Of a DNA stretch of 64,000 nt, positions 32,617 to 60,078 are shown piece after piece. The notes beneath the pieces were generated by a model. That model was not told the origin of the DNA, ran no database searches, and saw only the letters and a list, made by a program, of their open reading frames with translations. The translations under genes were made by a program, and so were the position numbers. The number at the start of each line of letters is the position of its first letter. Position 1 is the first letter of the stretch. The stretch is from the NCBI GenBank assembly GCA_029288775.1, contig JARIGQ010000006.1, positions 120-64,119 of the forward strand, read 5' to 3'. This DNA is from Candidatus Nomurabacteria bacterium. GTDB lineage: Bacteria; Patescibacteriota; Minisyncoccia; Phycocordibacterales; UBA5272.

Positions 32617-32691
32617 GTGCCTATAGTGTAATGGTTAGCACGCGGGCTTGTGGAGCCCTCAGTTCGAGTTCGAATCTCGATAGGCACACCA
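32617..32691 (+). tRNA. tRNA-His (anticodon GUG), with an extra G at -1; it serves as the integration site (attL) for the downstream island array
   Basis: Hand fold: G(-1) GTGCCTA/TAGGCAC, anticodon loop UUGUGGA, T loop TTCGAAT, ACCA. The 3' 33 nt are overlapped by the recombinase coding sequence. Confidence 0.85.
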
Positions 32692-34281: not shown

Positions 34282-34420
34282 TTGTGTACCAAAAAAGGGG
34301 TAACAGGAATGCTTGTAATTGCGAAACCACAAGAGCTGTTACCCCATCTTTGGCTACAAACATTCCTATGTATCTTATGGTTTCGCATATACAGTATATA
34401 ACGTTAGAAGTTAAGTTTTG

Positions 34421-35041
34421 TTAGGTTTTCGACAGTAATCTGTTTTCCAGCAGTGTTACGTCTTCATCGGAATACCCTCCTTTAATGTTTAGGTAGCGTT
34501 TATACTTTCTGGTGGGTTTGCCTTTGTAGAATTTCCGTTTTATGTTCTGAACGTAATATTCATCTGCTTTCCATGCTTGGTTTAAAATCTTAAAAGCTCC
34601 TTGATATTTCTTTGATTCGTTACAACTCTGATAACTCAGATTGGCGCATTTACGACATGCGAAATAATTTCCCGCGAAGTATAGATTTCGTACTTTTTTA
34701 CCACAGTAAATGCCATTTTTGTATAAACCGCATATAAAGAACCATTTTTTACCCCCGAATCGACAAGGGTTACTTTCCATTACAAATTCGTACTTCATTA
34801 CTTTCCATGCTTCATTTCCCTCATATCTATTCTTAATCTTATAGTCGAATTCAATATGTGGGGTAGAGCTTGAGGTGTCTATTTTGACTCGAATATTTCC
34901 GCTAGGCTTCCCACCATAAGACCAACTTAACTGTCCGCCAAAATTTCCACCAAGATAGTTATGCTTCCGAAGCCATGCAAGCTCGATCCGCTTGGCTGCC
35001 TCGGTTGTATCTCTAGGGTTTGGGTGATAATACCTAGACAT
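34421..35041 (-). CDS. Cys-rich hypothetical protein (206 aa), possible zinc-binding (primase-like?)
   Basis: CRFGGKKWFFICGLYKNGIYCGKK...FACRKCANLSYQSC cysteine cluster. It is the last gene of a five-gene minus-strand operon. Confidence 0.4.
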   Translation of the reverse strand: MSRYYHPNPRDTTEAAKRIELAWLRKHNYLGGNFGGQLSWSYGGKPSGNIRVKIDTSSSTPHIEFDYKIKNRYEGNEAWKVMKYEFVMESNPCRFGGKKWFFICGLYKNGIYCGKKVRNLYFAGNYFACRKCANLSYQSCNESKKYQGAFKILNQAWKADEYYVQNIKRKFYKGKPTRKYKRYLNIKGGYSDEDVTLLENRLLSKT

Positions 35042-35050
35042 ATTGATTAC

Positions 35051-36319
35051 CTAAATCGTTTGAGATTCTTCCTGTTTATCAGTCACCCCACCGCGGTCCA
35101 CACTATATTCTTCCTCATCAGTAATTACCGCTGGAAGTATGAGCCATCTTCGTTTATCGTTCCCGTCTTGTTCTTGTGTCACCAATCCAGCTGTTTCGAG
35201 CATGGGAATTATCTGTTGGCGTAGTTGGTAAATGTCCAACATACGTCCGTGCAGGTCGAAGTGTTTTTGTAGAATGTCTTGCCGTGATATTCCGGGTCTC
35301 TTGTCCAAGGCAAATTGGTCATCTTTAAGTTGATGTTCCCTAACTTTCCAAAGAGGGACGATAATATCTTTATAGATTTTATAAACATACGGAGGAAGAT
35401 TGAATTCCTGGCTTATTGAAATTTTTTCCCAGATTTTGAACGCTTCTTCAATGTCTTCTTCGTTGGCGATAATGCCAGTTTGGGTCTGATCTCTCCACCA
35501 GTGGTTCAGTAGGGCTATAGACTTTATAAGAGCCATAAACCGCTTAATGTCTCTCTGGTGGCGGGGTTTTAAGAGCTTCTTATCTGCCAAAAACCGCCTT
35601 TTAACCAGCTCCTCCGAACAAATCTGTATATCTCCAATACGGGCTTGTTTTATAGCTAGAATACGGCTTTTTAGGAGTTCTCGTCGTGGGTCGGAATTGA
35701 GCCATTCTTCATACTCTGTTGAATTGGAGCTTTTCCGTATCGCTTGATCGATTCCCAACTTAATCTTCTCAGGGGTGGCTTCAGGGCTAAGAAGTAAGAA
35801 GCGTGTAGATTCCTGCTCGTCTATACGGAGTCCAGCAGAACAGAAAATGACAGAGGGGAAACCTCTTAGTATGACTGTCTTGGTCCTATTCCCACCTTTC
35901 TGATTTTTATCTGTTATTTTCGAATGCATCTCTCTTTCATCGTGAGAGAGAAAAGAGCGTAGTCTCTCTAAAAGTTGGGTGTGTGGCATATCCAAGAAAA
36001 TAATAATCTTTCTTGCCAGGTCCACCACGATACTGTTCGTCTCTTTATTGTATTCTCCTTGTTCGTGAAAGAAAGCTGTAGGGGAACAGTTTCCAATTTT
36101 TATCACATCCTCTTGAGGAAAGAGTCCTGAAATTTCTAGTGGAATGTATGACTTCCCAGACGATGATGGGGCATTAAAAGAAACATTAAATTGAGCGTCA
36201 TGTGTGAATGCTGAAAGCTGACATAGGAAAGTAGCAATTTTGTTCTCTTCGTCTGCTTTTATAGTAAGGGAGAGAATATCTGCTAGCTCTTCAATGCTAA
36301 GCGGTTGATAGTTTTCCAT
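35051..36319 (-). CDS. P-loop NTPase, putative replication helicase/primase-associated ATPase of the element
   Basis: Walker A NAPSSSGKSY and Walker-B-like IIIFLDMPH, with a downstream TVILRGFPSVIFCSAG resembling SF3/AAA+ motif C. The family is not identified. Confidence 0.45.
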   Translation of the reverse strand: MENYQPLSIEELADILSLTIKADEENKIATFLCQLSAFTHDAQFNVSFNAPSSSGKSYIPLEISGLFPQEDVIKIGNCSPTAFFHEQGEYNKETNSIVVDLARKIIIFLDMPHTQLLERLRSFLSHDEREMHSKITDKNQKGGNRTKTVILRGFPSVIFCSAGLRIDEQESTRFLLLSPEATPEKIKLGIDQAIRKSSNSTEYEEWLNSDPRRELLKSRILAIKQARIGDIQICSEELVKRRFLADKKLLKPRHQRDIKRFMALIKSIALLNHWWRDQTQTGIIANEEDIEEAFKIWEKISISQEFNLPPYVYKIYKDIIVPLWKVREHQLKDDQFALDKRPGISRQDILQKHFDLHGRMLDIYQLRQQIIPMLETAGLVTQEQDGNDKRRWLILPAVITDEEEYSVDRGGVTDKQEESQTI

Positions 36320-36320
36320 A

Positions 36321-36495
36321 TTAATCTAATTTGTATTTTTTATAATCTTCTTTGGTAATAGGTTGGTAGGTTATTCGGACAAGCTCAATGAGCTTTACGG
36401 CCTGTATATAAGCTTCTTCCTCCGATATTTCTTCCCCGAACTCTTCTTTATAGAGATTCTGGAACGTCGAGATCTGCTTGCCCGATAAGACCATG
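36321..36495 (-). CDS. Small protein (57 aa), unannotated in the ORF track
   Basis: Hand translation gives MVLSGKQISTFQNLYKEEFGEEISEEEAYIQAVKLIELVRITYQPITKEDYKKYKLD. Tightly packed in the operon: its stop is 1 nt before the next start, and there is 1 nt after the upstream stop. Confidence 0.3.
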
Positions 36496-36496
36496 A

Positions 36497-36763
36497 TTAG
36501 TTAGTTCTAATTCGGCTTTTTAACTCACGGGTGATATTCCAGTAAGCTTTTGGTTCAACAAGTAATAACCCTTCCCAGAAACGATATATAACATTATTAA
36601 GTTCATCTGATTTCTCGAATACGAAAGTAACTTTTGGGTGATCTTTCGGATTTCGGTTGACCGCGACAATGGAGAATCCAAGATATTGAAGGCTAGAGGC
36701 AAGTGCAAGATCTGATACCTCTACGTGTCGATCTATTTTTAGGAATTTGTAATCTGATTTCAT
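36497..36763 (-). CDS. DUF5659-like small protein
   Basis: YKFLKIDRHVEVSDLALASSLQYLGFSIVAVNRNPKDHPKVTFVFEKSDELNNVIYRFWEGLLLVEPKAYWNITRELKSRI has the pattern of the DUF5659 family found in phage and mobile contexts. Recalled from memory, not searched. Confidence 0.45.
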   Translation of the reverse strand: MKSDYKFLKIDRHVEVSDLALASSLQYLGFSIVAVNRNPKDHPKVTFVFEKSDELNNVIYRFWEGLLLVEPKAYWNITRELKSRIRTN

Positions 36764-36832
36764 AATTTAAAAACCCGCAGGTTCCTCTGCAGATTATTAT
36801 TTGTATGTATTCTTGTATAAGAAAAAACTGTA

Positions 36833-37741: not shown

Positions 37742-37852
37742 AAATATCTTTAAATATACGTCAATCTACACTTTTTTTTGACCGTTGCAATATAGTAGAG
37801 GTATTACATTGTTGCTTTTGCCTACATTAGGTATACACTGAAATGAAACTAT

Positions 37853-40800
37853 ATGAGCAGGGTACGAATGCTAAACGCAACATTCGGTTCGCTCACGAGA
37901 GATTCTCGTAGATTTTTGTATTCTCTTCTCCGAAAAAAGGCACTCATAATGAGTGCTCTTTTAGTTTTTGTGCAGCTTTTGACTCCGGTTGCAACTATAT
38001 ATGCCGCTGCAACGGTTTCTAACGATATAGGATCTGCAGCTTCCTTGGATCCAGTAGGTAATAAAGCGACACGTCTTCAAGGTCAAGGATCTTCAGGTGT
38101 TGACCAATCGTCGGGGGCGCTTACGTATACCTACCCTTTGACTTTACCGGATGGTAGAAATGGAATGGCTCCAAAGCTTTCTTTGTCATACAACTCTCAA
38201 AATAATGATTCAGGATGGTTCGGGCACGCTTGGACAATAAATATTCCCTACGTTGAAAGAACAACAAAAACTGGGTCCGACAAGATGTATAGTAATCCCG
38301 TATTTGTTTCTTCTCTGCATGGTGAGCTTACTTCCAGTAATGGGATTAATTATGAGCAAAAGGTGGATGATGGTTCTTACCCCAAATATACATACTCTGG
38401 AAATACGTGGCAAATGACTGATAGGGATGGCACAACCTATTATTTTGGGAATACTTATACTAGCCGAATACAGGATGATGCTGGAACGCTTATAGGTAGA
38501 TGGTATCTAACTGAAGTTCGCGATAAGTTTGGGAATGGAATTCTTTATGGTTATACCAAGGATTCTGGCACCGTATATCCGAGTACTGTTTCCTATACTG
38601 AACACGCACTGGCACACCCTCTTAATTTGGTTAGCTTCACTTTAGAAAATAAAACAGATCAACTACCAAGCTATAAATATGGCTTCAAAACTACTGATAC
38701 GAAGAGAGTATCTGCTATTAAAGTAAGCACAAACGGCAAAGACAACTCATATTTCTACTTTACTTATACATTCGGGTCAAATGGAGTGCGTTCTCTTCTT
38801 CAATCCATCGAGAAAAAACATCTAAGTACAAATGGCGATTGGACTACCCTCCCTAAAACAACTTTTGATTACGAGAAGTCTGCCCCAAGCTTCTCAGGGA
38901 CTATTTCTAATAGTGTTAACCCTTATGGAGGCAATGTTGTTATGGATACAGACGGTAATGGGATTTTAGACCTTTATAATGCAGGTGATGGATACTTTCC
39001 TGTTGAAATTAACGGTGATTATAAGAAAGACCTTGTTCAAGCAGAAATTACATATGGAGCATACTCTTCTGGGCAAAATATAAATTTTAAGTATAACCAA
39101 GGAAGCAGCACTTTCTTATTAAGAAATCTTAAGAAACCTACATCTTCCGCATATATAAGAAGTATGGTAGCTGGAAATCCTATACCTCCTTTGCGGTACT
39201 TGCCCGAAGGAGGTTCAGGGTGGGGACAAGAGTCTGTGGTAGCTGATGTTAATGGAGATGGGTTTGATGATGTGGTGTATAACGATCCTTATGGGAATAA
39301 TGGTGTTGGTGTGAATACTACAAATAATACTTTTGACTACAGCACTCCTACTAATCTTTGGTTTAGCGTACTCAATGATCAGCTTGTTGATATTAACGGT
39401 GACGGGTTACAGGATAAAATATCTAAGTCTACATCTGGAACTACTACATATAGTATTTATTTAAATACTGGGAGTGGATATTCTACAACAACTTACTATG
39501 TTTACAGTACAGGAACCGCGTTGCCTGCTGAATATGATACGGGTGTTAGATTTGTCGATATAAATAATGATGGTTTGGTTGACTTTGTAAGATCTTATTA
39601 TTCTAATTACTCGGGTACTGGAAATCCTACCTGTACTGATTCATATTCTCCTGTACCTACCACTGCTCCAATTAACCAGTCTGTAAGCCAGTACTATATA
39701 AATACCGGGACTGGTTTTACAGCATCAACCTCACCCCTTAGTGGATACATTATCAATTACGGTAGTTGTGCTTATGGAATGACTTCAGGTTTCTTGGTAA
39801 CAAAAAGTACTAAAGAATACGATACTGACGGTGATCTGGATACCGACTATGATGGAGCTACTAATAATACAAAGAAGCAAGATGTCCTCACCAATGTAAC
39901 TAGCTCTCTCGGGTCCACCCTCAGTGTTTCATATTCATGGACTACAACTGGTGGACTTAATCCTACACTACCTGTTCCAATGTATACGGTTGCAACTACA
40001 ACCGAAAAGTTTTCACTTTCTGATCCAGCTCCTCACATTGTTTCTTATAGCTTCCAAGATGGGCAAATGTACTATGACGATTCCGCTCCTCGTGATCATA
40101 AGTTTGCCGGATTCGGTAAAGTTGAAGTGGTAGATGGAAATAAAAAAACCGTCACCTATTTCCACCAAGGTAATGGTGATAACCTCAGCACAGGAGAAAA
40201 AGGGGATTCTTATTACAATATTGGAAAATCTTACCGTACTGACACCTTCGATCTATCCTCCGGTACCTCAACTTTAGTCAGTAAAGATCTTTCACTCTAT
40301 ACCACGTACTCATATGCTTCCTCTTCGTTTACATACCTAGATAGTCAAATAAAGAATCTATATAATTCTGATGGATCTTATGTATCTTCAGCAAGCAGAA
40401 ATGTGTACGATGAAACTAAGCGTCTTATTAAGACTTCCTACAACTATGGAGATATTGAACCGTTCATTTCCTTTGCTTCTTCAACTATTACAGACAAGGG
40501 GTCGGACCTCACAGTAACTTCATATATATATTCAAATACACGTCCACAACGCTTGGTTAAGCAGACAACTACAGACTACTCAGGACAGACAATAGGAAAT
40601 ACTGCCTACTACTATGATGGACTTCCTTATGGATTAGTAGATAAGGGAGCTGTAACCACAACCTTAGATACTATTTATAATAGTGACGGTACGGTAAACG
40701 CCACAAGCTCAACGCAAGTTGAATATGATCCCACGGGAAATGTAACTAAAACAACGGATGCTCTTGGGAACATAACTAAAGTTTCCTATGACAGCTCTTA

Positions 40801-43800
40801 CTACTTTCCAACACAAAAAGTTGATGCGCTTAACGGAACAACTACGTATTCTTATGACCCTTATACACTTAACTTATTATCTACTAAAGGACCAGATGGA
40901 ATAACCTATACCAAAGAAACAGATGGATTAGGTAAGGTTACTCGATCTTATACCCTGGATTCTGGAGGGGGTGTTCACGATGAAGTAAGGATCAATTATG
41001 TGTACGGAGGTGGTCTTACTGTTTATACACGAAAAATGGGTTCAAGTGGACAGGAAGCTCGCTCTGTAGACATTTACGATAGTTATGGGAGGTTAATTCA
41101 ATCTAAAAAGGAAAGCACCGTTGATTCTTTTTCTACCCAAGACACAACTTACGATGCAAGCAGTAATGTTACCTCAGTATCATTGCCATACATCACAACA
41201 GGGTATGGATATACACCCGGTACTCCAACAAATGGAAAAACCATATATACCTACGATGGTCTTGGAAGAGTGACAACTAAGGAGGCTTTTGGAAGTAAAG
41301 CAACTTACCAGTACGGTGCTCGATCGCTAACTGTCCAAGATAATGCGTCTACTCAGCACAAGAAAACATATATCTATGATGCCAACGGCAACTTGGCTAC
41401 TGTCCAGGAATACAACAATGGTAGTACGTACACAACTTCATATTCCTATACTCCAACAAATAAACTTTCTCGTATAAGTGACGCAAATGGGAACATTAGA
41501 AATTTCAGCTACCTATCTAATGGGCTTTTAACATACCAAGAAGACTCACACCCGTCTTCAGATTCAACATTTACCACTTATTCCTACACCTATGATTCCT
41601 TAGGAAACCTTCTTTCAAAAATAGGACCGCTTGGCTCAATAATTTACTCATATGATGCTCTAAGTCGACCTACAACGAGAGTTGTGTCAGATGCGACTAA
41701 TGGAACATCCACCGTCTCTCTTTCATATACAGGCTGTGCGAACAACTATGTTTCTCCTTGTGTCATTAACCGAGGCACATCTTCAACGACTCTAACTTAC
41801 AATTCTTATGGAAAATTAGGAAGTGAAATGCTTTCTATCGATGGAAAAACCTATACCCGCTCTTACGCTTACGATACCTTTAGTAATCCGACAACTATTA
41901 CATATCCTGACAACGGTCAAGCTATCTACTCCTATACTTTAGATGGGAAACAAGCTTCACTTTCATATATAACCCCAAGTGGCAGCACGAAATCTATTGT
42001 TAGCAACACCACATTTAACTCAATAGGGGATCTTTCTTCCTACTCTTTGGGTAACGGGATACAGCTTTGTAATACATACACTACGACATCTACCGATGGA
42101 GTGATCTCTCCAAAATTAGGAAAATCGGTATACCTCTTCAACTCAGTAGGATGCTCTCTTTCGGGTTCTAACCAAGTTGAGCTCTATAAGGATGAATTTA
42201 CCTATAAGGACTACATGACTCCAAGTAATATTCTTACAACGTACAAGGATATTGCTGGAACTACCCATACAAAGAGTGATAGTTTTACCTATGATAATCT
42301 TGCTCGCTTAACTCAAACTTCTACTTCCTATGATGGGGGAGGGGCTTTAGTGGATAGTCTTGTCTATGATCCGATTGGAAACATTATTAGTGAAAATAAT
42401 GTTTTGTATCGTTATAGCAAGGACGGAATGCAAAATGCTAACGCAGTGACCTCTATTGGAGGTGTTAACGTCTCTTATGACTCTCAAGGAAACCGTATCC
42501 AGTCTGGAGATAACTCGTATGCATGGAATACTCTCAATCAGTTAGTTTTAGCTACAAGTAGTAACGGTACGGAACGTTATACTTATGATGAAAATGGAGA
42601 ACGACTTAAAAAAGTGGTCCAAGCAAGTGTCCTTATCAATCAAAAAGTTACCCCTTCTACTACTGGTCTAGCAATTAGCACCCTATCCCAAGGCGACCTT
42701 TTGGCTCAAGTTGCCACATCAAGTACCTATATTGCCACTTCTACATACAATACGCTATCTTCGCTTTCGTTACTAGATAAGACGTCTTTGTTCAACTTGG
42801 TCACCGGGTATTACGCTTCACCATTTACAAGCAAGTTCTGTGCTGCAACATCTACCGCAAATCGTCAGACGTGTATTTCTGATACGACTAAGCAACTGCT
42901 GGCAAATGACATAAACCAAAGAAGTACGAGTACCGTTGCTACCACAGGACTTATAACCGATATTATTAAAATTTCAACAGGGGAGTATCTTATTCCTTCC
43001 TCATATGTAGGAATAGCTACAAGTAGTATTGCAATCAGTAGTCAAGCGACATTTACAGTAAATAGTGGAACTATTAGTTCATATAACACCTATGTAGCTA
43101 CAGGAATTGTCGTCGCACTTGATCAATATAGTAATCTTCCTTACGTATCCACGAGTACCTACACCACTCTTGCTTCACTTGGACTGATAGATACCACTAA
43201 AGTAAAAACCGTAATGATCCTTGCAGGTTGTAACTCTGTGGCATCTGCTTGTACGACTGCCAAAAAGGTGATCTTTGAAAAATATTACAAAGAAAGTGGT
43301 TATCTCCTTTCTGATCGTGCTCTACAGGAAATGTGGTATGTATATGCTGCTAAAGCTCGATTGCCCGGTAATTCTACTGAATTAACATCTACTTCAACTT
43401 ATCTTGGTAGTATTTCTGTTCCTTCAGTAACCTCTCGAAGTAGCAGTAGTGCTACGAGTACATATTATTCTGGTTTGTACTTTACAACGGAATACACTAA
43501 CCAAAATACAGCGGAGCCGAGGTTGCAATACTTTAATACAATTCCTTATTACATTACTCCCACTGCGTTTGGTGAACTTCAGGCAGCGGGGATTACCCAA
43601 ACAACAGTTCAAAGTTACCAATCTCAAATTGATGATTTACTGTCCATCAAATACGCATCTTCTACGGAGTACATGGTTGCCCTACAGTCATTTGCCAAAA
43701 ACGATAAGGGGGTAACGCTAAGCTGGAACACTCTAAAAGAGCTCTATCTAGTCGTAATTGGCGCAGCAAGTATCCCTAATAATACCGGAGACTATACCCA

Positions 43801-46800
43801 AAACGCAGTATATGACTTATCTAACTATTTAGTGATCAATAGTTATAAGACAGTCAGTGGACAGTTCACTTTACAGTGGACTACAGCTTGTAATGGAGGT
43901 TATGTTTCTAGTCTTACCTACTCTCGTTGTGTGATAGGAACTTCACCCTTTAGCCTTTCCGTTTCATCCTCAACTTCTGTAAGTTATATTCTGTCGCTTA
44001 AAAATAGTCCAAACCCAACAGAAACAACTCTTCTTATGGGTTCTTCGACAAATACTACTATGGGTACAGATAGTTATAACTACGCAACTGATTTACCTCA
44101 TATATTTAACGGTTACTATACGCAAACATTTAGTTCAGATGGTGTTCGTATAGATGCTGATGTTACTCCAACTATACTTACACAGCAAGCTAGTAGTACT
44201 TCGCCATTAAAGATACTTATTAGTAATGATTCGCAATGGTCTTCAGATCCATACACGTGGGAAGCAACCTCAGTAACGCTTAAGGCTTATGCTAATACCT
44301 CGAGACTTACACTAGCTTCTACTACGCTAGTTTCAGGAGTGACAAATGCCACTACTACAAGTTTTACTGCAGGCATCCAGAGCACAATTGCTTCTTACTT
44401 CGGCGAAAATCATGATAGTTCTTTTGATGTAAGTACAGGAACTACATCACCACTTGTTTTCATCTCTCCGGAATCATATCGAGAATTTGCTTCCACTACC
44501 CTCAAGGATGCATATCAGATTACTAAAGTCTTTATGGCTACTTCAACAACGCAGTGTGCTTCAGCGGCCTCGACTACGGAATGTGATAAAACTCTTCGTA
44601 AGGCCGCGTTTAGAGAAATAGTTACCAACTTAAGTGGTTTTACACCAAGTCAGGCTGCTACTGAAGAATTTTGGATGGTGCATAAAGGAATCTTGGCTCT
44701 TCCCAATGTTTCATTTGCTTCTACGACTGCGACAACTACGGTCAATGGTTATTATCAGGCAACTTCAACTATAGGTTCATGGTATATCATGGTTTCTCCG
44801 GGTAATTACACGTATTATGTAGCAACGTCGAGTGCGGTATTGCCTGCAATTGTTTCTTCCACTTCTACTCCGTATCCAGTTTTTGCTAGATCTAACCTAC
44901 CGAATTCACTTTCAACAAGTACTACGTATCTTACATCTACTACAACCATTCCTGGGTTCTGGGTAGACCAGGTGGTGTATCAAGATTCTCCAACTGGTGG
45001 AGCTACGAGCACGACTGGTTCTTACACAGTGCATACGTTTAATTCCTCAGGAACATTTACTGTTCCATCCGGGGCAAGTTTTAACGCTGAAGTTCTTGCT
45101 GTGGGAGGCGGGGGAGGCGGGGGAGGATCTCAAGGTGGTGGAGGAGGTGGTGGTCAAGTAATCGCCAGTTCAACCGTTGCATTCACTGCGGGTTCATATT
45201 CTGTGACTATCGGAAGCGGTGGGGGAGGAGGGGATGCTGGTGGAACTACAGCTGGTGGAGATGGAGCCACGACAACATTTGTAGGCATTACAGCAAAAGG
45301 GGGCAAAGGGGCGCCACGTCAAACCAACTTAAATGGTGGAAATTCTGGAAGTGGTAAAACAGGCGGTACAGGAATACTTTCCGGTTACTACCCATCTGGT
45401 GGAGGCGCGGGAGATTTTGCGAATGGAGTAAATGGGTCAGGTTCTGCATCTGGGAATGGAGGAACTGGAACATCATCCTCTATTACAGGAAGTTCTTTGG
45501 GTTATGGCGGTGGAGGCGGTGGAGGGGGAGATTCGCAAGGTTCTACTCCTGGTAGTGGTGTAGATGGCGGAGGAAATGGAGCAACAGCCTTTGTAAGTTC
45601 ACCAGGTTCATCTGGTACTGCTAATAGAGGAGGCGGAGGAGGTGGGGGTAGTAATGATAATGGTTGTCACTGTGCCGGAACGGCTGGAGGTGATGGCGGT
45701 TCTGGCGTGGTAATTGTTCGTTATCTGACATCTCTGTTCCCATTCAATGCAACGACTACAACTCACGTGTATATTGCAACAACTACTATCATTGCTCCAG
45801 TAACACATCTTGATTTGGTGCCTTCAGGAGTGCTTACGGATACACAATTTACTACTACGTACGCAACATCCAGTTTTGCTTTGGCAACTACGACGAAGGG
45901 AGTAAGTCAAGATACTTACAACGAGCTTCTAAGAACCCCAGTACGCTTAAATTCTGATGTGACCACTGTATTTACTTATGCTCTTCCATTTGCAACAAGT
46001 TCATGCCCGGGTCAGACAGCTACAAGTAGTTGTGTTATTACTGCTCAAAAGACAAAAGCTAAAGACACAATAAGCGCCCTCTCGGGATTCGTCTTGTCAG
46101 ATGCTGCACTAGAAGAGCTATACCGAGTTAATTCAGGAGATTTATCAATTATTCCAATGAATCTCACGAATGCTGCAACATCTTCATCGAATCAAACTAT
46201 TATTCTGCCTCTTGATAAATCTCGAGCCTATACATCCTACAGTACATCAACCGCTTCAGGAACCACTACATCTTCAGTAGGGGGCAGCTGTTCATTCGGA
46301 ACTACTGGCGCTACAACAACGAAGTGTAAAATCGGCTTACCAGATCTGAACACTATAATCCAAAGCGCTACCTTCAAATACGATCTTTCTACTTCTACCG
46401 TCTCAACAAGTACGTTACTGCTTAACTTTACCTATCTTACTCAGGTTGCCTCCACAACAGGTGCAACATCCACTCCTCAATTTACAGCTGTGTCTTCTTC
46501 GACAACAGTTACTGGTCAAAAGTCTGGCACTTCTACGTTTAGCTTCGATCTAAGCTCGTACTACGTAGACTTTATGGCAGCAACGACGTCTACATTTATT
46601 TTGACTCCTGATGCAAATGGAACATCGACTCAAGTTTTCCAAGTACTAAACCCTATACTTACGTTTAATAGATATATTTCTAATCAAAGCATTACATACG
46701 CAACAACCACTCAATTTATTCCATTTGATAGGTCCGCTATCCCTTCTTATGCGACCACAACTGCAACAACCTCAATCGATCTGACAAACACCCCGCCTAT

Positions 46801-48766
46801 CGAGCTATCGATGATGTTTTCTCCAGAAGCTGGGACTTTTGTCCTTAATTCTACGCCTAGTACTTATCTAGTTGGAAACACAGGTATGGTTGCTTATTAC
46901 AAATTAGACAGTAATTCCAATGATGCAGCAGGTTCTACCAACGGATCTGACACCAACATTACGTACTCTTCAGGAAATGGGAAGCTAAACAACGGAGCTG
47001 GATTCAATGGAACCAATAGTACCGTTGCATTAGGAACAGGTCTCAACCTTGCAGGAGGCGGCATGACGATTGCGGGCTGGGTATACATAAATACCAATAG
47101 CCTTTATCAAGAAGCCATCCTCAACAAGCGTGATGTTGGAGGAACAATGCAGTATCAGTTCTATGTAGAAAACAGCGCGGCAAAGCTCGCTTTCTACACA
47201 GGTACTCAATATAATTCAACCTCCGCTGTAGGAAGTAACGGGTGGCATCATGTGGCAGTCACGCTTTCAAATTCCTCAAACGGAAATCTAACTTTCTATA
47301 TAGATGGAGTTCAGAGTGGAACAGCCTCGAGCGTAAACCTTGGTTCAGGAACATCAGCAAGAGTTGCTATTGGTAGTCAAGGATCTGCAGACTACGACTT
47401 CTTCCATGGAGCCATTGACGAACTAGGTGTTTGGTCCCGCACACTTTCTTCTACGGAGATTGCTAATCTTTATAATAGTGGAAGTGGCCTAGCATATCCA
47501 TTTGCAACTGTAGGGTCATCACGACAAGAGTCCTATGCAGGGTCTGAGATAGATGACAGCTATCTGTATTCTACAAGCACGCAGAACATTCTCCCCGCAG
47601 TATCTTATCCATACGCTACAAGTACAGCCACCTCTACTGTATACAGTCTTACAACGGCTACCACTACTTCGTACACCCTCTATACTCCATTCTCAAACTA
47701 CCAAGACGACAGTAGGGGAACCATCACAAGTTATCTAACCTTCAATGGCAAACTCATAGCTGCGTATACATACCAAAGTGGTCAAGAAGCTTCCACCGGA
47801 AAGCTAACGTACATATTGGTGAATTACTTGGGTACCCCTGTACTATCCACGGACGCACATGGAGACATTACGGAGATGGACGTCACCGACTCTTTCGGAA
47901 ACTACGTTCATAGAGATAGGAGAAACGACAATGCAGAGCACACCCGGGGGTTTACTAATCAAGATTTCGACGATGTTACAGGATTAAACTATTTCCATGC
48001 TCGTCTTCTTGACCCGAAGGCCCACACCTTCCTTTCGGTAGATCCAGTAATTTATAACTTAGTAAGTAATAACAACGAAGACAGATTACGCTTTGTTAGT
48101 GCATTAATTAATCCACAAGCTCAAAATAGTTACTCTTATGTTGGTAATAATCCCATAACAAATATCGATCAAGACGGCCGTTGGTGGGTAGAGGTTTCAG
48201 CATCACTTGCTGGATCTGGACGTACGGGTTCTATAGGTTTTAGATTTGATGATACAGGAATTGATTATTTCCAGTCGGGAGGATTTACAGCGGGTTCAGG
48301 AGCTTTTGCTGGGATAGTAATATCTCCGTATGGCTCACTCTCACATCAGGCTCAATCCACTACTAATGTTACTTTTCAAGCAGCAAAAGTTGTAGGAGGT
48401 CAAATTAGTGGAGATCTGGCCACGTATTCTGTCAATGCTAAAAGCATGGTTCCAAATGATAAACCTTCAGGTGGTATAATATTTGGACTAGGAGCGAGCG
48501 CTTCTGTCCAGCAAGAAGTTTCAACTCCATTGGTCAGTTTTGGGAAGAATACTCAGCCAACAAATTCAGTACCTAAGACGTCAACAAATGCTGTTCAAGG
48601 TAGAATGAGTCCGCAGAGTATTATAGGACCAACATTACCCCAGCAGTCAAATCAAACAAAAACTAACACTGCTCCCAAAGTTAACATAAACCCTACTCAG
48701 CAGAGTCAACAGGGAGGAATATTAAATACCGTCAATAATTGGTTCAACAATATATTTAAAAAATAA
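37853..48766 (+). CDS. Giant RHS/Tc-toxin-B-like polymorphic toxin (3637 aa): SpvB domain, FG-GAP/VCBS repeats, RHS/YD repeats, Thr/Ser-rich regions, poly-Gly blocks, LamG domain, RHS core end, and an unknown C-terminal domain
   Basis: N-terminal TM/signal segment. SpvB/TcdB N-domain (GALTYTYPLTLPDGRNGMAPKLSLSYNS...GWFGHAWTINIPYVERTTK). DxDGDG FG-GAP-like repeats (DTDGNGILDL, DVNGDGFDDVV, DINGDGLQDK, DINNDGLVDFV). More than 15 YD repeats (YxYDxxGN(L/V)). G8-G9 runs around 45.1-45.7 kb. LamG/concanavalin fold (WHHVAVTLS...FYIDGVQSG...AIDELGVWSRTLS). RHS core terminus ...YFHARLLDPKAHTFLSVDP...NNPITNIDQDGRWW, then a roughly 195-aa Gln/Asn/Thr-rich tail. Confidence 0.9.
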   Translation: MSRVRMLNATFGSLTRDSRRFLYSLLRKKALIMSALLVFVQLLTPVATIYAAATVSNDIGSAASLDPVGNKATRLQGQGSSGVDQSSGALTYTYPLTLPDGRNGMAPKLSLSYNSQNNDSGWFGHAWTINIPYVERTTKTGSDKMYSNPVFVSSLHGELTSSNGINYEQKVDDGSYPKYTYSGNTWQMTDRDGTTYYFGNTYTSRIQDDAGTLIGRWYLTEVRDKFGNGILYGYTKDSGTVYPSTVSYTEHALAHPLNLVSFTLENKTDQLPSYKYGFKTTDTKRVSAIKVSTNGKDNSYFYFTYTFGSNGVRSLLQSIEKKHLSTNGDWTTLPKTTFDYEKSAPSFSGTISNSVNPYGGNVVMDTDGNGILDLYNAGDGYFPVEINGDYKKDLVQAEITYGAYSSGQNINFKYNQGSSTFLLRNLKKPTSSAYIRSMVAGNPIPPLRYLPEGGSGWGQESVVADVNGDGFDDVVYNDPYGNNGVGVNTTNNTFDYSTPTNLWFSVLNDQLVDINGDGLQDKISKSTSGTTTYSIYLNTGSGYSTTTYYVYSTGTALPAEYDTGVRFVDINNDGLVDFVRSYYSNYSGTGNPTCTDSYSPVPTTAPINQSVSQYYINTGTGFTASTSPLSGYIINYGSCAYGMTSGFLVTKSTKEYDTDGDLDTDYDGATNNTKKQDVLTNVTSSLGSTLSVSYSWTTTGGLNPTLPVPMYTVATTTEKFSLSDPAPHIVSYSFQDGQMYYDDSAPRDHKFAGFGKVEVVDGNKKTVTYFHQGNGDNLSTGEKGDSYYNIGKSYRTDTFDLSSGTSTLVSKDLSLYTTYSYASSSFTYLDSQIKNLYNSDGSYVSSASRNVYDETKRLIKTSYNYGDIEPFISFASSTITDKGSDLTVTSYIYSNTRPQRLVKQTTTDYSGQTIGNTAYYYDGLPYGLVDKGAVTTTLDTIYNSDGTVNATSSTQVEYDPTGNVTKTTDALGNITKVSYDSSYYFPTQKVDALNGTTTYSYDPYTLNLLSTKGPDGITYTKETDGLGKVTRSYTLDSGGGVHDEVRINYVYGGGLTVYTRKMGSSGQEARSVDIYDSYGRLIQSKKESTVDSFSTQDTTYDASSNVTSVSLPYITTGYGYTPGTPTNGKTIYTYDGLGRVTTKEAFGSKATYQYGARSLTVQDNASTQHKKTYIYDANGNLATVQEYNNGSTYTTSYSYTPTNKLSRISDANGNIRNFSYLSNGLLTYQEDSHPSSDSTFTTYSYTYDSLGNLLSKIGPLGSIIYSYDALSRPTTRVVSDATNGTSTVSLSYTGCANNYVSPCVINRGTSSTTLTYNSYGKLGSEMLSIDGKTYTRSYAYDTFSNPTTITYPDNGQAIYSYTLDGKQASLSYITPSGSTKSIVSNTTFNSIGDLSSYSLGNGIQLCNTYTTTSTDGVISPKLGKSVYLFNSVGCSLSGSNQVELYKDEFTYKDYMTPSNILTTYKDIAGTTHTKSDSFTYDNLARLTQTSTSYDGGGALVDSLVYDPIGNIISENNVLYRYSKDGMQNANAVTSIGGVNVSYDSQGNRIQSGDNSYAWNTLNQLVLATSSNGTERYTYDENGERLKKVVQASVLINQKVTPSTTGLAISTLSQGDLLAQVATSSTYIATSTYNTLSSLSLLDKTSLFNLVTGYYASPFTSKFCAATSTANRQTCISDTTKQLLANDINQRSTSTVATTGLITDIIKISTGEYLIPSSYVGIATSSIAISSQATFTVNSGTISSYNTYVATGIVVALDQYSNLPYVSTSTYTTLASLGLIDTTKVKTVMILAGCNSVASACTTAKKVIFEKYYKESGYLLSDRALQEMWYVYAAKARLPGNSTELTSTSTYLGSISVPSVTSRSSSSATSTYYSGLYFTTEYTNQNTAEPRLQYFNTIPYYITPTAFGELQAAGITQTTVQSYQSQIDDLLSIKYASSTEYMVALQSFAKNDKGVTLSWNTLKELYLVVIGAASIPNNTGDYTQNAVYDLSNYLVINSYKTVSGQFTLQWTTACNGGYVSSLTYSRCVIGTSPFSLSVSSSTSVSYILSLKNSPNPTETTLLMGSSTNTTMGTDSYNYATDLPHIFNGYYTQTFSSDGVRIDADVTPTILTQQASSTSPLKILISNDSQWSSDPYTWEATSVTLKAYANTSRLTLASTTLVSGVTNATTTSFTAGIQSTIASYFGENHDSSFDVSTGTTSPLVFISPESYREFASTTLKDAYQITKVFMATSTTQCASAASTTECDKTLRKAAFREIVTNLSGFTPSQAATEEFWMVHKGILALPNVSFASTTATTTVNGYYQATSTIGSWYIMVSPGNYTYYVATSSAVLPAIVSSTSTPYPVFARSNLPNSLSTSTTYLTSTTTIPGFWVDQVVYQDSPTGGATSTTGSYTVHTFNSSGTFTVPSGASFNAEVLAVGGGGGGGGSQGGGGGGGQVIASSTVAFTAGSYSVTIGSGGGGGDAGGTTAGGDGATTTFVGITAKGGKGAPRQTNLNGGNSGSGKTGGTGILSGYYPSGGGAGDFANGVNGSGSASGNGGTGTSSSITGSSLGYGGGGGGGGDSQGSTPGSGVDGGGNGATAFVSSPGSSGTANRGGGGGGGSNDNGCHCAGTAGGDGGSGVVIVRYLTSLFPFNATTTTHVYIATTTIIAPVTHLDLVPSGVLTDTQFTTTYATSSFALATTTKGVSQDTYNELLRTPVRLNSDVTTVFTYALPFATSSCPGQTATSSCVITAQKTKAKDTISALSGFVLSDAALEELYRVNSGDLSIIPMNLTNAATSSSNQTIILPLDKSRAYTSYSTSTASGTTTSSVGGSCSFGTTGATTTKCKIGLPDLNTIIQSATFKYDLSTSTVSTSTLLLNFTYLTQVASTTGATSTPQFTAVSSSTTVTGQKSGTSTFSFDLSSYYVDFMAATTSTFILTPDANGTSTQVFQVLNPILTFNRYISNQSITYATTTQFIPFDRSAIPSYATTTATTSIDLTNTPPIELSMMFSPEAGTFVLNSTPSTYLVGNTGMVAYYKLDSNSNDAAGSTNGSDTNITYSSGNGKLNNGAGFNGTNSTVALGTGLNLAGGGMTIAGWVYINTNSLYQEAILNKRDVGGTMQYQFYVENSAAKLAFYTGTQYNSTSAVGSNGWHHVAVTLSNSSNGNLTFYIDGVQSGTASSVNLGSGTSARVAIGSQGSADYDFFHGAIDELGVWSRTLSSTEIANLYNSGSGLAYPFATVGSSRQESYAGSEIDDSYLYSTSTQNILPAVSYPYATSTATSTVYSLTTATTTSYTLYTPFSNYQDDSRGTITSYLTFNGKLIAAYTYQSGQEASTGKLTYILVNYLGTPVLSTDAHGDITEMDVTDSFGNYVHRDRRNDNAEHTRGFTNQDFDDVTGLNYFHARLLDPKAHTFLSVDPVIYNLVSNNNEDRLRFVSALINPQAQNSYSYVGNNPITNIDQDGRWWVEVSASLAGSGRTGSIGFRFDDTGIDYFQSGGFTAGSGAFAGIVISPYGSLSHQAQSTTNVTFQAAKVVGGQISGDLATYSVNAKSMVPNDKPSGGIIFGLGASASVQQEVSTPLVSFGKNTQPTNSVPKTSTNAVQGRMSPQSIIGPTLPQQSNQTKTNTAPKVNINPTQQSQQGGILNTVNNWFNNIFKK

Positions 48767-48769
48767 ACT

Positions 48770-49027
48770 ATGATTAAAACAATTTTATTTCTCGGGATCG
48801 TAATTATTACTAGCTATGTTGTTTCTAGGAATATAAACGAATGGAGTGAGAGTTTTCGTGTGTTCAATTTAAAAAATATTAAAAATTCATTTGGTGATAA
48901 ATTTGGTTTTTTGAAATCAGGAGAAAAGAAGTGGTTCTTGTACTTTTGTAAGATATGGATTATTTTTGTCTCTCTATTGTTTCTAACTTTAGTTTATCTC
49001 GTTCTTTTTGGAACTATTGTTTTATAG
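48770..49027 (+). CDS. Small two-TM membrane protein, candidate immunity protein for the RHS toxin
   Basis: Starts 4 nt after the toxin stop, as in classic rhs-rhsI layouts. Two hydrophobic helices. Confidence 0.4.
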   Translation: MIKTILFLGIVIITSYVVSRNINEWSESFRVFNLKNIKNSFGDKFGFLKSGEKKWFLYFCKIWIIFVSLLFLTLVYLVLFGTIVL

Positions 49028-49068
49028 TCCCCTAAAAAGCCACCATTTAAAGATATAGTGAAAGATAC

Positions 49069-49112
49069 AGTGTGGAGAGGGGTAGGGTAAAGCTAAAAAG
49101 AGGAGTAAACTT
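49069..49112 (+). promoter_or_regulatory. Conserved 44-nt island motif, copy a
   Basis: AGTGTGGAGAGGGGTAGGGTAAAGCTAAAAAGAGGAGTAAACTT. The four copies differ only at a handful of positions; the other three are at 50437, 60029 and 61548. Confidence 0.5.
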
Positions 49113-49160
49113 GATTTAGAGGGAAAGGTATGGCCATTAATAACGCAATCAACCATAACC

Positions 49161-49664
49161 ATGAAAAAGCTATTAGTTTTAATAATCTTACTTGTTGGTG
49201 TCACTCAGTTTTCATCAGCTGCAATTACTACTTGTACAGTAATTAGCAGAGATTTAACATATAAAAGTAGTGACTACGGTTCCGGTGGAGATGTGGCAAA
49301 TCTTCAATATTTTCTTAATCAAACAGGAGACCTTATAAACTACCCTTCTGGGTATTTTGGACCGTCTACCTTAACAGCTGTTAAGCAATTTCAAAGTGCT
49401 TATGGGATTTCCCCAACAGGGTATGTGGGAAGCCTTACAAGGGCAAAAATCCAGTCTCTGTCATGTGGAAACACAACCACATTATCTAACGATAATCATT
49501 ACACAAACAGCGCAGGAAATACGGTTCACTCCCCAGCTTATACGAGTGATAACTCAATACCTTCAGGAGCAAGTGCGCAGTGTGGTGACGGAACCTATAG
49601 TTTCAGTCAAAGCAGTAGAGGTACCTGCTCACATCATGGAGGTGTAAGTAGGTGGTTAAGATAA
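49161..49664 (+). CDS. Secreted protein with a peptidoglycan-binding domain (PG_binding_1-like)
   Basis: Signal peptide MKKLLVLIILLVGVTQFSSA. GDVANLQYFLNQTGDLINYPSGYFGPSTLTAVKQFQSAYGISPTGYVGSLTRAKI matches the three-helix PG-binding repeat. Confidence 0.6.
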   Translation: MKKLLVLIILLVGVTQFSSAAITTCTVISRDLTYKSSDYGSGGDVANLQYFLNQTGDLINYPSGYFGPSTLTAVKQFQSAYGISPTGYVGSLTRAKIQSLSCGNTTTLSNDNHYTNSAGNTVHSPAYTSDNSIPSGASAQCGDGTYSFSQSSRGTCSHHGGVSRWLR

Positions 49665-49665
49665 T

Positions 49666-50172
49666 ATGAAAACCATTTCAGAACTAAACAATAAATGGTG
49701 GTATAGATTGATTAAAGTTGCTTTTTTCGTTGCTATTCTTTTGTCTATTTGTGTGGCGGTTTCAGTAGAGTGGGATGAATTATATAGCTACGATTCGGAC
49801 TATAGAATATTGTGCAATTATGGCAATAAAGCCAGTTTCCTAGCGTATAAAGAGAGGCAAATTTATATTCCTAGTTATTACAATTACTCCGACAGTATTG
49901 CTGATATTCCGGACTCAACCAAAACGCAGATTCGATCTATATGTCAAATTACTGACGCAGAAATCCAGGCCTTAATGAACGACATAATGAATGGTAATTA
50001 TGATGGGAAAAAACTGTTTGATGTTATTCCAACCAGCATTCCGAGAGCTACCCACTTATCTGTTACCTTATGGTCCGTCTTGTATATTGTGATTATCCTG
50101 GTGATTAGTGAGATTATTCATCGAGTATTCTATTACATTTTATTGGGTACCTTTAGACCTAAGAAAACTTAG
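49666..50172 (+). CDS. Membrane protein with N- and C-terminal TM helices (168 aa)
   Basis: ATGA overlap with the preceding gene. Hydrophobic helices at both ends. No motifs recognised. Confidence 0.4.
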   Translation: MKTISELNNKWWYRLIKVAFFVAILLSICVAVSVEWDELYSYDSDYRILCNYGNKASFLAYKERQIYIPSYYNYSDSIADIPDSTKTQIRSICQITDAEIQALMNDIMNGNYDGKKLFDVIPTSIPRATHLSVTLWSVLYIVIILVISEIIHRVFYYILLGTFRPKKT

Positions 50173-50197
50173 TTCCGTTATTATTTAATTTTCATCT

Positions 50198-50410
50198 ATG
50201 TCACTTTGGAATAATTTGTTTGGGCTAAGATGGATTAGAACCCCAAAAGCAAAAATAATATTTGGATTATCAATGCTGGCCCTGGCTATTTTTACTTTGG
50301 GAGTTGTAGGGTTAAAAGATTCCTGGGAGTTAATTATTATTTTAACTGTTGGAGGTTTGTGGCAAATCGTTACAGGCCGAAAGAAATTTTGGCAGGAAAA
50401 ACAGTTATAA
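50198..50410 (+). CDS. Small two-TM membrane protein (70 aa)
   Basis: Two clear hydrophobic helices. It competes with the antisense ORF 50185-50430; the membrane topology makes the plus-strand ORF the preferred reading. Confidence 0.3.
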   Translation: MSLWNNLFGLRWIRTPKAKIIFGLSMLALAIFTLGVVGLKDSWELIIILTVGGLWQIVTGRKKFWQEKQL

Positions 50411-50436
50411 TTTTCTCGGACAAGGCGCACGATTAA

Positions 50437-50480
50437 AGTGTGGTAAGGTGTAGGGTAAAGCTAAAAAGAGGAGTAAACTT
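50437..50480 (+). promoter_or_regulatory. Conserved 44-nt island motif, copy b
   Basis: AGTGTGGTAAGGTGTAGGGTAAAGCTAAAAAGAGGAGTAAACTT. Confidence 0.5.
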
Positions 50481-50592
50481 TAGATATGAGAACTAACTAT
50501 AGGGTTCCTAAACTTGATTTAATTTCAAGTTATTCTAGTTATTTTGATTCATGGTTTATGGCTAAGAATTAATTTAATTTTATAAAACCGAA

Positions 50593-50988
50593 ATGTTAAA
50601 GATATTTGACTACAATCTACACAAAAGACAAGTATTTTGGTACTTTTTGTTATCTAGTATAGGAATCATTTACTTGTTGTGGTCCAATTATCAGTTGCAT
50701 AATGAAATTAAAGAAAAGGAACTCGAAGTAAGGATATATAACGAGAATATCGATAAAACCAATGACTTAGATTTAAGATATTCAAAGTGTCTTGATAAAG
50801 CAGACAATGATGCAAAATGGAGTATTTATTCTTATTGCATGAATTCTCCTTGGTATCCAGATAAAACAGCATGCAAATTAGACGAGCTCCCGTCTGGTGG
50901 AACTTTGTTGGAGTCATATCAAAAAGACAAAAGTAATTGCTCACAGCAGTTTAAGGGGGCAATTTATAAAGAACCTTGGGAAAGGTAG
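50593..50988 (+). CDS. Hypothetical membrane-anchored protein (131 aa)
   Basis: N-terminal TM helix, then a Cys-containing extracytoplasmic segment. Its stop abuts the att-like repeat. Confidence 0.35.
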   Translation: MLKIFDYNLHKRQVFWYFLLSSIGIIYLLWSNYQLHNEIKEKELEVRIYNENIDKTNDLDLRYSKCLDKADNDAKWSIYSYCMNSPWYPDKTACKLDELPSGGTLLESYQKDKSNCSQQFKGAIYKEPWER

Positions 50989-52624
50989 CTAGTTCTAATT
51001 GTCTCTACCGCGGCACACCAATCGAGACGAATAGCGTCAGTTCGCTCACTTCGTCCAGTAGTATCAAGGGTTTCTTCCAGTTCCAACCTTTCTAGGTCGC
51101 TTTTAAGCTGGAAATAGTTACTTTCTATAGGTTCCAGCCATTTATGCTTGGAAATAGTAAGTATCTGGTCAGTTATGGTGTGGTTCCAACCTAAGCCAAG
51201 CAAAATAGCTTTCTTGTGCTCTGGAGGAGATTCAGGGTTGACGAAATGCTTCTTCGCGTAGGCCGCAAACTTGAAAGTCTTCTCCGTCAATTCCAACCAT
51301 TTTTCTTCACGGTCTTCTGATTCTGCCAGTTGGTCCTTACTCTTTGCAAGCTTTGCTCGTAAGATGTCTCGTTCTTTAATGAAGCCTTGTTCATCAATCA
51401 GCTCCTTGTAGAGCATCTTAGTCAGATTATCCAATTCTCGCTGAGTGTCGTCACAAAGCTTTTGATTACTCTTCTTAACTTCAAGACTGTCCTGAATTTC
51501 GACCACATTTCTCTCCTTCAAGTAATCCAGTGCCCAAGTTAGAAACTGAGGATGAATCTCACACCCCTCTACAAACTTAAGTATCTGCTTTTCAAGCGCA
51601 CTTTCAGTAAGTGTCTTCTTCTGAGAACACTGAATACTTTTCTTTTTACGAGTACAGTAGTAGTAAGTGAATGACTTATATTCTCCAGTTGAAAGAATAA
51701 GTTTGTTTTTAGTTACGGCGGTATGCATACACCCACATTCACCGCACGTAATTTCTCCTGTATAAGCATGCACATGTTTTGAGGGGCGAGGTTTGCCATA
51801 CTTTCCTAGTAGTACCTGTACACGGTCGTACTCCTCTAGAGTAATCATAGGGTTATGATTACCTTTGTATTCTTTTCCATCCCAAACAAACGTTCCAGTG
51901 TAGAAGAGATTCGTGAATACTCGATAGATACTTGAACGTCCAAAAGGAACTACTTTGCTTTTGAATATTTTGCAGTAAGACCCCATTCTTCAGTTGCTAT
52001 TGCATGAACCTGAGGAGCTGTGTAAGCACCGGTAAGCATAAGGTCCCACATTTTTCGTACAAGTGAAAATCTTTCTGGGTCATTCACGATAGTCTTTTCC
52101 AGCTTGTCATTAAGGTAGCCGATAGGCGGACGAGATGGAAGCCATCCACGACTAGCTTTACCTTCCATCCCACGGTAACAATTCTTACGAAGGTCCAGGA
52201 TGAACTGGTTTGCCATACCGCTTTCAACACTAAACAAGAGGACGTTGTCTTCTGGTTTGTACTCTTTATCGATGGTTTGAATTGACTGAAGAGTTCCTTG
52301 CTGGAGCATCCAACTTAACGTTCCGCTATCAATAGGATTACGCGAAAGGCGGTTAATTTGCCAGCACAGAATCCCTTCTGCTTCGCCGTTTTTAATACGT
52401 TCAAGCATACTCTCGAAAACAGGACGATCGTAAGGTTTTTTGGCAGATTTTGCCTCTTGGAGCACCTCCTTCACTCGTATACCGAGAGTTCTGGCCAGGT
52501 CTTGAAGTTTGTTTACCTGGTCTTCTATGGATTGCACCTGTCGTTCCTCCGACTCAGAGGATTTACGGGCATAGAGAAAGTATTGAATTGTCTTGCTTTC
52601 TTCTGTTTTCATCTGTAAGTTCAC
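50964..52624 (-). pseudogene. Large serine recombinase of element 2, disrupted by a frameshift near 51985 and split into ORFs 51950-52624 and 50964-51986
   Basis: The N-part has YARKSS...QINRLSR. The C-part has the zinc ribbon CGECGC...YYCTRK. Both show about 60-70% similarity to the recombinase at 32659-34281 by eye. The reading frames switch after the shared EEWG motif. It could equally be an assembly indel. Confidence 0.7.
50991..51020 (+). repeat. att-like degenerate copy of the tRNA-His 3' end (island junction 1/2)
   Basis: AGTTCTAATTGTCTCTACCGCGGCACACCA, against tRNA-His AGTTCGAATCTCGATAGGCACACCA. The GGCACACCAATCG 13-mer is identical to the tRNA-His end plus its flank. It lies inside the recombinase 2 3' coding region, mirroring how recombinase 1 overlaps tRNA-His. 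Confidence 0.6.
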
Positions 52625-60072: not shown

Positions 60073-60078
60073 AAACAT

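Follow-up and report, generated by a model that had tools for sequence, protein, structure and literature searches.

Toxin-immunity modules of the rearrangement hotspot (RHS) type are well understood in Proteobacteria and Firmicutes, the WapA protein of Bacillus subtilis being a Sec-exported RHS toxin of a monoderm, and to our knowledge little work has been done on them in the ultra-small episymbiotic Patescibacteria. Toxins of the TcdB/TcaC trafficking class combine an N-terminal signal, a SpvB domain and an integrin-like propeller (Zhang et al. 2012, PMC3482391). Here we consider a locus of this general kind in a 64,000-nucleotide (nt) stretch of contig JARIGQ010000006.1 from a Candidatus Nomurabacteria bacterium (the whole stretch is called the window hereafter), where an intact open reading frame (ORF) of 10.9 kb, at 37853..48766 on the forward strand and ending in TAA, encodes a protein of 3637 amino acids (aa) and adjoins a small gene for a protein with two transmembrane (TM) segments. 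The reading we favour, and would call likely rather than assured, is that the two genes form a TcdB/TcaC-class RHS toxin-immunity module with a membrane-acting barrel as the toxin and the two-TM protein as the antidote, carried as variable cargo by a serine-recombinase element. Three other explanations, in which the target is an envelope component, the role is host-directed or adhesive, or the C-terminal domain is a non-toxic end-piece, we rank lower.

With the TcdB/TcaC-class toxins and the TcB-TcC cocoon of Tc toxins the giant protein shares a putative signal peptide, a SpvB domain, a propeller, a YD-repeat shell, a core aspartyl-protease plug, a variable C-terminal domain and a candidate immunity gene downstream (Table 1). 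A first-pass annotation, made by a model from the letters of the sequence, had placed SpvB, FG-GAP, RHS/YD-shell, laminin G (LamG) and RHS-core segments in this one ORF, and the Pfam and NCBIfam matches bear this out. SpvB is matched at aa 86-171 (E 4.2e-17); FG-GAP_3 at aa 513-579 reaches 26.8 bits, 0.1 below its cut-off of 26.9, the assignment being backed by Ca-binding-type DxNxDGxxD motifs at 465, 513 and 569; the shell is matched by RHS_repeat (E 2e-13, three stretches) and by TIGR01643 (29 bits, cut-off 15.8), with ten YDxxG motifs in the ORF and, in the first part of the shell, YDxxG motifs at 958-1578; and the RHS core TIGR03696 is matched at aa 3346-3442 (nt 47888-48178) with 42.3 bits, above the curated cut-off of 32.5, a match whose absence would have told against the annotation. 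Two details of that annotation did not survive: the longest Gly run in the ORF is eight residues and not nine, and TcdB_toxin_midN, which it had suggested searching for, has no match in the 3637-aa protein. Unlike in the Tc (ABC) toxin complex, there is no TcA-sized partner within 64 kb (no second ORF in the window exceeds 800 aa), and an insertion of ~1650 aa breaks the shell near its C-terminal end.

The C-terminal domain and the small gene behind it

The terminal motif of the RHS core, NNPITNIDQDGRWW, lies at aa 3432-3445, the core end reading NNPITNIDQDGR directly followed by WW. It can be parsed as P-ITNI-D-Q-D-G-R, with D3439-Q-D-G-R3443 at nt 48167-48181, and the first motif, SVDP, is also present. 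Photorhabdus Rhs1 has its catalytic Asp in the second of its DPLGL motifs and is cleaved after that motif, D1338N abolishing cleavage (PMC8636562); by analogy, cleavage is predicted here after R3443, between R3443 and W3444. The deviation from DPxGL pointed out in the first-pass annotation is real, the Pro of DPxG being replaced by Gln, but it is not abnormal. While DPxG occurs in 75 of the 88 core termini of the fetched loci, the other 13 have S, K, R, E, T, A or Q in place of Pro, and one homologue of the C-terminal domain reads DQNG; the loss of Pro thus looks like ordinary variation, and the catalytic Asp and the Gly, both retained in the window, are invariant in the alignment of relatives (A1).

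What follows the cleavage motif differs from protein to protein. A search with aa 3206-3637 retrieved fragments from metagenomes whose identity over the core is 50-62% and which close the core with NNPxxxxDPxG; past DPxG they bear no relation to the window protein. Among species-representative genomes we found 65 related loci, nearly all in metagenome-assembled genomes (MAGs) of Patescibacteria, many of them Saccharibacteria, with Nomurabacteria, Paceibacterota and others. One Saccharibacteria MAG (L004) carries a 3632-aa orthologue, 64% identical over aa 24-2321 and with the N-terminal signal-like segment kept; this orthologue ends in another C-terminal domain and has a downstream immunity gene of its own (138 aa) and an orphan core fragment. 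The C-terminal domain of the window protein is also found on two backbones that are only 28-30% identical (L072 and L073), and in L067 a complete RHS+Imm33 pair is followed by the domain and a small ORF as an orphan cassette. The C-terminal domain thus varies between related proteins, and the cassettes are exchangeable. We note that in the metagenomic contig L066 an orphan domain and immunity cassette (2339-4550) lies beside a SAVED and SMODS pair resembling a cyclic-oligonucleotide-based anti-phage signalling system (CBASS) and an S24 peptidase, so that conflict systems cluster there.

The domain in the toxin position has a family of its own. An exhaustive phmmer search of 1.84 billion representatives returned 36 proteins at E ≤1e-3, of which 13 reached E ≤1e-10 (a word-indexed search with the domain alone had given no match, a false negative of the index), and in about 30 of the 36 the match starts directly after NNPxxxxDPxG of the RHS core. 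Their alignment (A2) has a core of ~120 aa whose invariant positions are nearly all Gly (G31, G38, G46, G50, G84); P128 and a near-invariant Asp are also conserved, and a catalytic-type constellation is absent. After the core come a variable low-complexity linker and, in many members, an amphipathic helix, and in the window protein the C-terminal helix lines up with the family's SLGQxLSxLxSALSxL tail. The first-pass annotation had described the final ~195 aa as Gln/Asn/Thr-rich and unrecognised, and had allowed that they might be merely a low-complexity anchor. The composition holds for the last ~75 aa (3564-3637), which are Asn/Thr/Gln-rich, but the first 120 aa are Ser/Gly/Ala/Val-rich and make up a conserved domain that is predicted with high confidence (see below); no named family covers it, yet its 36 homologues show that it is not unique. 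Neither the window domain nor any of 30 family members matched a Pfam family at E ≤1, NCBIfam and PHROGs gave nothing above threshold for the domain, the plasmid and phage collections held no relative of it, and a search of PDB sequences with the family profile produced chance matches to antibody light chains only. With tblastn, the domain and the small downstream ORF found nothing significant in the 65 candidate phyla radiation (CPR) RHS loci, where profiles were needed; a metagenome scan with a narrow alignment of the domain found only three short loci. On these searches the family appears to be undescribed, and it is unnamed in Pfam and NCBIfam.

The small ORF begins 3 nt past the TAA of the RHS gene, encodes 85 aa with two hydrophobic segments, and is marked by a drop in GC content to 27%. 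A hidden Markov model (HMM) built from the downstream ORFs of six relatives, with the window left out, finds it with E 2.9e-9 (36.4 bits) among 11,205 ORFs as the sole significant match in the window, and is significant for eight ORFs in seven loci outside it. It also detects a second copy in L073, in tandem with the first, and in L031 an orphan that follows an RHS gene with an unrelated C-terminal domain. In all nine loci that have downstream DNA (L066, L067, L068, L069, L072, L073 and L081/L082 of the family, and the distant L080 and L079), an ORF of 63-92 aa with two hydrophobic segments adjoins the domain gene. The proposal of the first-pass annotation that this ORF is an immunity candidate, which an ORF absent or unconserved in relatives would have undermined, is well borne out by this conservation; position, co-occurrence and orphan copies are the properties that would be expected of an immunity gene. 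The central loop of every member carries 5-9 Lys or Arg and the ends 0-1; by the positive-inside rule the loop would thus be cytoplasmic and no more than 13 residues (0-13) would face outward. Pfam, NCBIfam and PHROGs contain nothing above threshold for this ORF, and the two-TM immunity family, like that of the domain, appears to be undescribed and is absent from Pfam and NCBIfam. Weak matches of the ORF to lspA/Peptidase_A8 were set aside as simply reflecting hydrophobic TM sequence. In two relatives, arrays of small genes after the RHS genes (L031 10919-11929 and L073 11486-13262) hold an Imm33-like gene together with orphan members of the two-TM family, and look like immunity-gene islands.

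These observations bear on the explanation that the barrel is a non-toxic terminal piece with a structural or ligand-binding role and the small ORF codes for an unrelated membrane protein, or that the gene has become inactive through its degenerate DPxGL, for which one could cite the Gln in place of Pro and the lack of any enzymatic signature in the domain. We regard this as very improbable: the domain is always found precisely where a toxin would be, behind the cleavage motif, and is swapped between backbones, the small ORF co-varies with it and occurs as an orphan too, and the giant ORF is uninterrupted, with the Asp and Gly of its motif kept as in the other cores that lack Pro.

Predicted fold and probable site of action

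AlphaFold2, given alignment A2, models the domain as eight long strands, the first beginning exactly at W3444, with a predicted local distance difference test score (pLDDT) >90 for model residues 11-131 (aa 3442-3562), pLDDT <50 for the linker, and a terminal helix at model residues 192-205. A duplication relating the two halves of the barrel was not significant (P 0.05-0.14). The best fold matches are the membrane-active Vap proteins of Rhodococcus equi and membrane barrels, the top Foldseek probabilities being 0.97 for VapD and 0.90 for VapG. The VapD barrel has eight strands, and of 30 invariant residues 12 are Gly, which form a 'bald' detergent-binding surface (PMC4118825); the Gly-dominated conservation of our domain, with no catalytic-type residues, parallels this. 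VapA and VapN attach to liposomes and make them permeable, and they neutralise the pH of the phagosome (PMC10100859). Thus, the domain probably acts on membranes. A helical pore of the glycine-zipper type, as in Tse5-CT or TelE, was also considered and dropped, because the GxxxG-like strings GGFTAGSGAFAG and GGIIFGLGASAS lie in predicted beta-strands.

If this is correct, the following sequence of events can be envisaged. The protein would be exported by the Sec pathway, as its N-terminus indicates, and by comparison with solved RHS and Tc structures the YD-repeat shell and the RHS core plug would enclose the last 194 residues, which the aspartyl protease of the core, its catalytic Asp being present, would cut off after D3439-Q-D-G-R3443. 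The freed Gly-rich barrel of eight strands, with its Vap-like predicted fold, a flexible linker and an amphipathic helix, would then most likely permeabilise or depolarise the cytoplasmic membrane of the target cell. A membrane-acting cargo fits a Sec-exported RHS protein of a monoderm, because it need not cross the target membrane. In the producer, the 85-aa protein would sit in the membrane with almost nothing exposed outside and neutralise the toxin in or at the bilayer, a role to which its conservation, position and topology point; the topology suggests that contact between the two proteins happens within the bilayer.

Several observations weigh against the toxin-immunity reading or against its Vap component, and we collect them here. 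Foldseek gave no match at E ≤1e-3 for the domain model, and profile-profile comparison (hhalign) of the domain with six Vap sequences taken from pVAPA1037 returned a probability of 0.1%; the resemblance is therefore one of predicted fold only. The link rests on one AlphaFold model, VapB, the top structural match, is the weakly membrane-active paralogue, and we know of no Vap protein that is an interbacterial toxin. On the side of the small gene, the ORFs of L079 and L080 show no significant sequence similarity, and in L079, the most distant locus, the small TM ORF is encoded on the other strand. The stronger proposal, that this is a family of membrane-permeabilising toxins with the Vap fold, delivered in Patescibacteria by RHS cocoons and countered by an intramembrane two-helix immunity protein, we regard as less likely than not.

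One could instead imagine a toxin-immunity pair in which the barrel binds or modifies an envelope component on the outward side of the membrane (lipid II, a membrane protein receptor or a wall precursor, for example) and the two-TM protein protects by masking it. We consider this unlikely, as the domain has no conserved polar or catalytic residues, the 0-13 residues that the immunity protein exposes outside would offer little masking surface, and the best fold matches are those to membrane-active proteins and membrane barrels named above. A membrane-acting barrel with a two-TM antidote remains our preferred account of the pair.

The shell insertion and the integrated element

The Ser/Thr-rich insertion is recognised from relatives: window aa 1461-1589 and those from 3243 onwards are contiguous stretches in the RHS proteins of L072 and L073, and the ~1650 aa between them are therefore an insertion in one shell loop, just ahead of the last shell strands and the plug. 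It is common to the window protein and the L004 orthologue. In addition to a glycine-rich and a LamG domain it contains five modules of ~80 aa, each with four helices and two Cys, which were spotted by eye and confirmed by alignment; a blastp self-comparison of the insertion detected no repeats. Speculatively, the insertion with its LamG domain, glycine-rich domain and helical modules projects from the shell loop and serves in cell binding, and it could be a built-in targeting arm that replaces the absent TcA, type VI secretion system (T6SS) or type VII secretion system (T7SS) delivery partner.

Another explanation is that the protein is a weapon against the host bacterium of the episymbiont, or mainly an attachment protein with the insertion as its adhesin, the immunity gene serving only to avert self-harm during export. 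Saccharibacteria live on Actinomycetota hosts, the relatives of the locus are almost all from Patescibacteria with many labelled Saccharibacteria, and an insertion of this size with LamG and repeated modules is typical of surface proteins. Domain swapping, orphan cassettes and orphan immunity genes, on the other hand, are the signature of antagonism within a guild (PMC3482391), and we judge a host-directed or adhesive role to be improbable, in favour of a toxin-immunity module.

The first-pass annotation had put the locus inside a mobile element, and here we can be more specific. The 3' end of tRNA-His, GGCACACCAATCG, recurs at 51012, ahead of a second serine recombinase. The tRNA gene, flanked by an intact recombinase, and this repeat delimit an element of ~18.3 kb, integrated at tRNA-His in a hot spot of tandem integration and with no phage genes found in it. 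Two metagenomic contigs (L077 and L078) are 86% identical to the window over 32546-36768, which includes the tRNA, the recombinase and four small genes (a common module recombinase-206-422-57-DUF5659), and past the equivalent of 36768 they carry other genes in place of the RHS locus. The RHS-immunity pair is thus variable cargo, since these contigs share the element end without it. Degenerate copies of the tRNA-His 3' end were found by alignment at 50983-51020, 59923-59960, 61326-61363 and 63869-63906, as if several elements, now decayed, had integrated in tandem at a single site. The genes at 49161-50988, downstream of the immunity gene, are further cargo; the PHROG matches of the PG_binding_1 and DUF3761 protein are to the wall-binding part of endolysins only.

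A repeat of 45-68 nt (TATTGCAATATAGTGTGGAGAGGTGTAGGGTAAAG..AAAAAGAGGAGTAAACTT) occurs at 49066-49133, 50434-50501, 60030-60074 and 61545-61612, just upstream of the ORFs at 49161, 50593, 60079 and 61623, and 5' of a gene in the related contig L077 (3990-4047); its first part precedes the RHS gene too (37778-37796). It looks like a shared promoter or 5' untranslated region with a strong Shine-Dalgarno sequence. Two terminator-like sites (hairpin and T-run), at 37895-37909 and 37939-37957, lie within the first 105 nt of the RHS ORF, where 3 such hits were counted and 0.2 expected. The in-frame ATG of Met33 falls within the second hairpin; the hairpins could act as a leader or attenuator, or could matter for which start codon is the true one. 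Scans for promoters and terminators in the surroundings of the operon gave nothing informative. Elsewhere in the window, a GC-rich patch at 12100-13700 (0.54, its surroundings having ~0.42) contains the genes of two paralogous proteins of secreted or lipoprotein-like type (12200-12880 and 13031-13612) that share the C-terminal GQVIATE.Q.P...EDCN.WR.R, and adjoins a gene on the reverse strand (10307-12010) for a PilB/GspE-like ATPase, a label judged from the sequence without a family search.

Table 1. Coordinates in the window of the giant RHS gene, the candidate immunity gene and the surrounding element.
Feature	Position	Strand	Basis or remark
N-terminal basic stretch and hydrophobic segment ending YAAA before T, putative Sec signal peptide	37853..38008	+	aa 1-52, read by eye
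SpvB-type N-domain	38108..38872	+	aa ~86-340; Pfam PF03534, two stretches
Integrin-like FG-GAP beta-propeller region	38900..39922	+	aa ~350-690; PF13517 and DxNxDGxxD motifs
RHS/YD-repeat shell, first part	39950..42622	+	aa ~700-1590; PF05593, TIGR01643; aligns to L072/L073 shells
Ser/Thr-rich insertion in shell loop, ~1650 aa	42620..47581	+	aa ~1590-3243
Gly_rich_2 in insertion	45047-45724	+	aa 2399-2624; Pfam, E 1e-16
Laminin_G_3 in insertion	47006-47464	+	aa 3052-3204; Pfam, E 6e-23
Last shell strands and RHS-associated core / aspartyl-protease plug	47582..48181	+	aa 3244-3443
C-terminal toxin-position domain, predicted eight-stranded Gly-rich beta-barrel	48182..48541	+	aa 3444-3563
Asn/Thr/Gln/Pro-rich linker and short amphipathic helix ending KK	48542..48763	+	aa 3564-3622 and aa 3623-3637
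85-aa two-TM immunity candidate, Lys/Arg-rich central loop	48770..49027	+	HMM of relatives, alignment A6, topology count
tRNA-His, left boundary (attL side)	32617..32691	+	ARAGORN and Rfam
Intact large serine recombinase, 557 aa	32659..34332	-	Pfam Resolvase, Recombinase and Zn_ribbon_recom
Secreted PG_binding_1 and DUF3761 protein; two small membrane proteins without family	49161-49664, 49666-50172, 50593-50988		
Second serine recombinase, frame-split into ORFs of 224 aa and 340 aa	50964-52624	-	
Repeat of tRNA-His 3' end, right boundary (attR-like)	51012..51024	+	direct repeat D4

Comparison with known systems

An RHS polymorphic toxin is an already known kind of system, in which new C-terminal cassettes are the rule. 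What is new here is an unnamed domain family with a Vap-like predicted fold, a two-TM immunity family and a large insertion in the shell; compared with the TcdB/TcaC class as described, the C-terminal domain and its candidate immunity partner belong to families absent from Pfam and NCBIfam. Surface weapons may decide which Patescibacteria keep a host, and the locus supplies a recurrent toxin domain, a matching immunity family and the hypothesis of a Vap-like barrel blocked inside the bilayer.

The R. equi Vap proteins (VapA/B/D/G; Pfam R_equi_Vir) have no sequence homology detectable to the window domain. They are free-standing secreted or surface virulence proteins that act on host phagosomes, whereas the window domain is RHS cargo; they have no known immunity partner, whereas the window domain has a candidate one; and their disordered part is N-terminal, that of the window domain C-terminal. 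Should the link nevertheless be true, it would bear on the mechanism of Vap virulence, tie the R. equi Vaps to interbacterial toxins and provide the first genetic antidote for dissecting how the Vap fold acts on membranes; should it be false, the locus would be a routine new cassette in a known system.

In their logic the pairs of a membrane-depolarising toxin and its immunity protein, CdiA-CT EC93/CdiI, Tse5-CT/Tsi5, TelE/TipE and TspA/TsaI, are the same, a membrane toxin being countered by the product of a neighbouring gene, a small integral-membrane protein. These toxins, however, are helical or of the glycine-zipper helical type, whereas the window domain is predicted to be all-beta, and we found no sequence relation between them.

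For the system as a whole, the WapA proteins, for which streptococcal WapA (PMC12704120) was also taken into the comparison, are perhaps the closest parallel. The C-terminal domains of WapA are nucleases that act in the cytoplasm and have soluble immunity proteins, in contrast to the non-enzymatic-looking barrel and integral-membrane partner of the window, and WapA has wall-binding repeats where the window protein has the SpvB/propeller module. Common to both are a Sec-type N-terminus with no T6SS or T7SS marker, an RHS shell, a polymorphic C-terminal domain and a downstream immunity gene, and contact-dependent competition would be the expected role of the window protein likewise. By this analogy, the system would work most like the Sec-exported RHS toxins of the WapA type.

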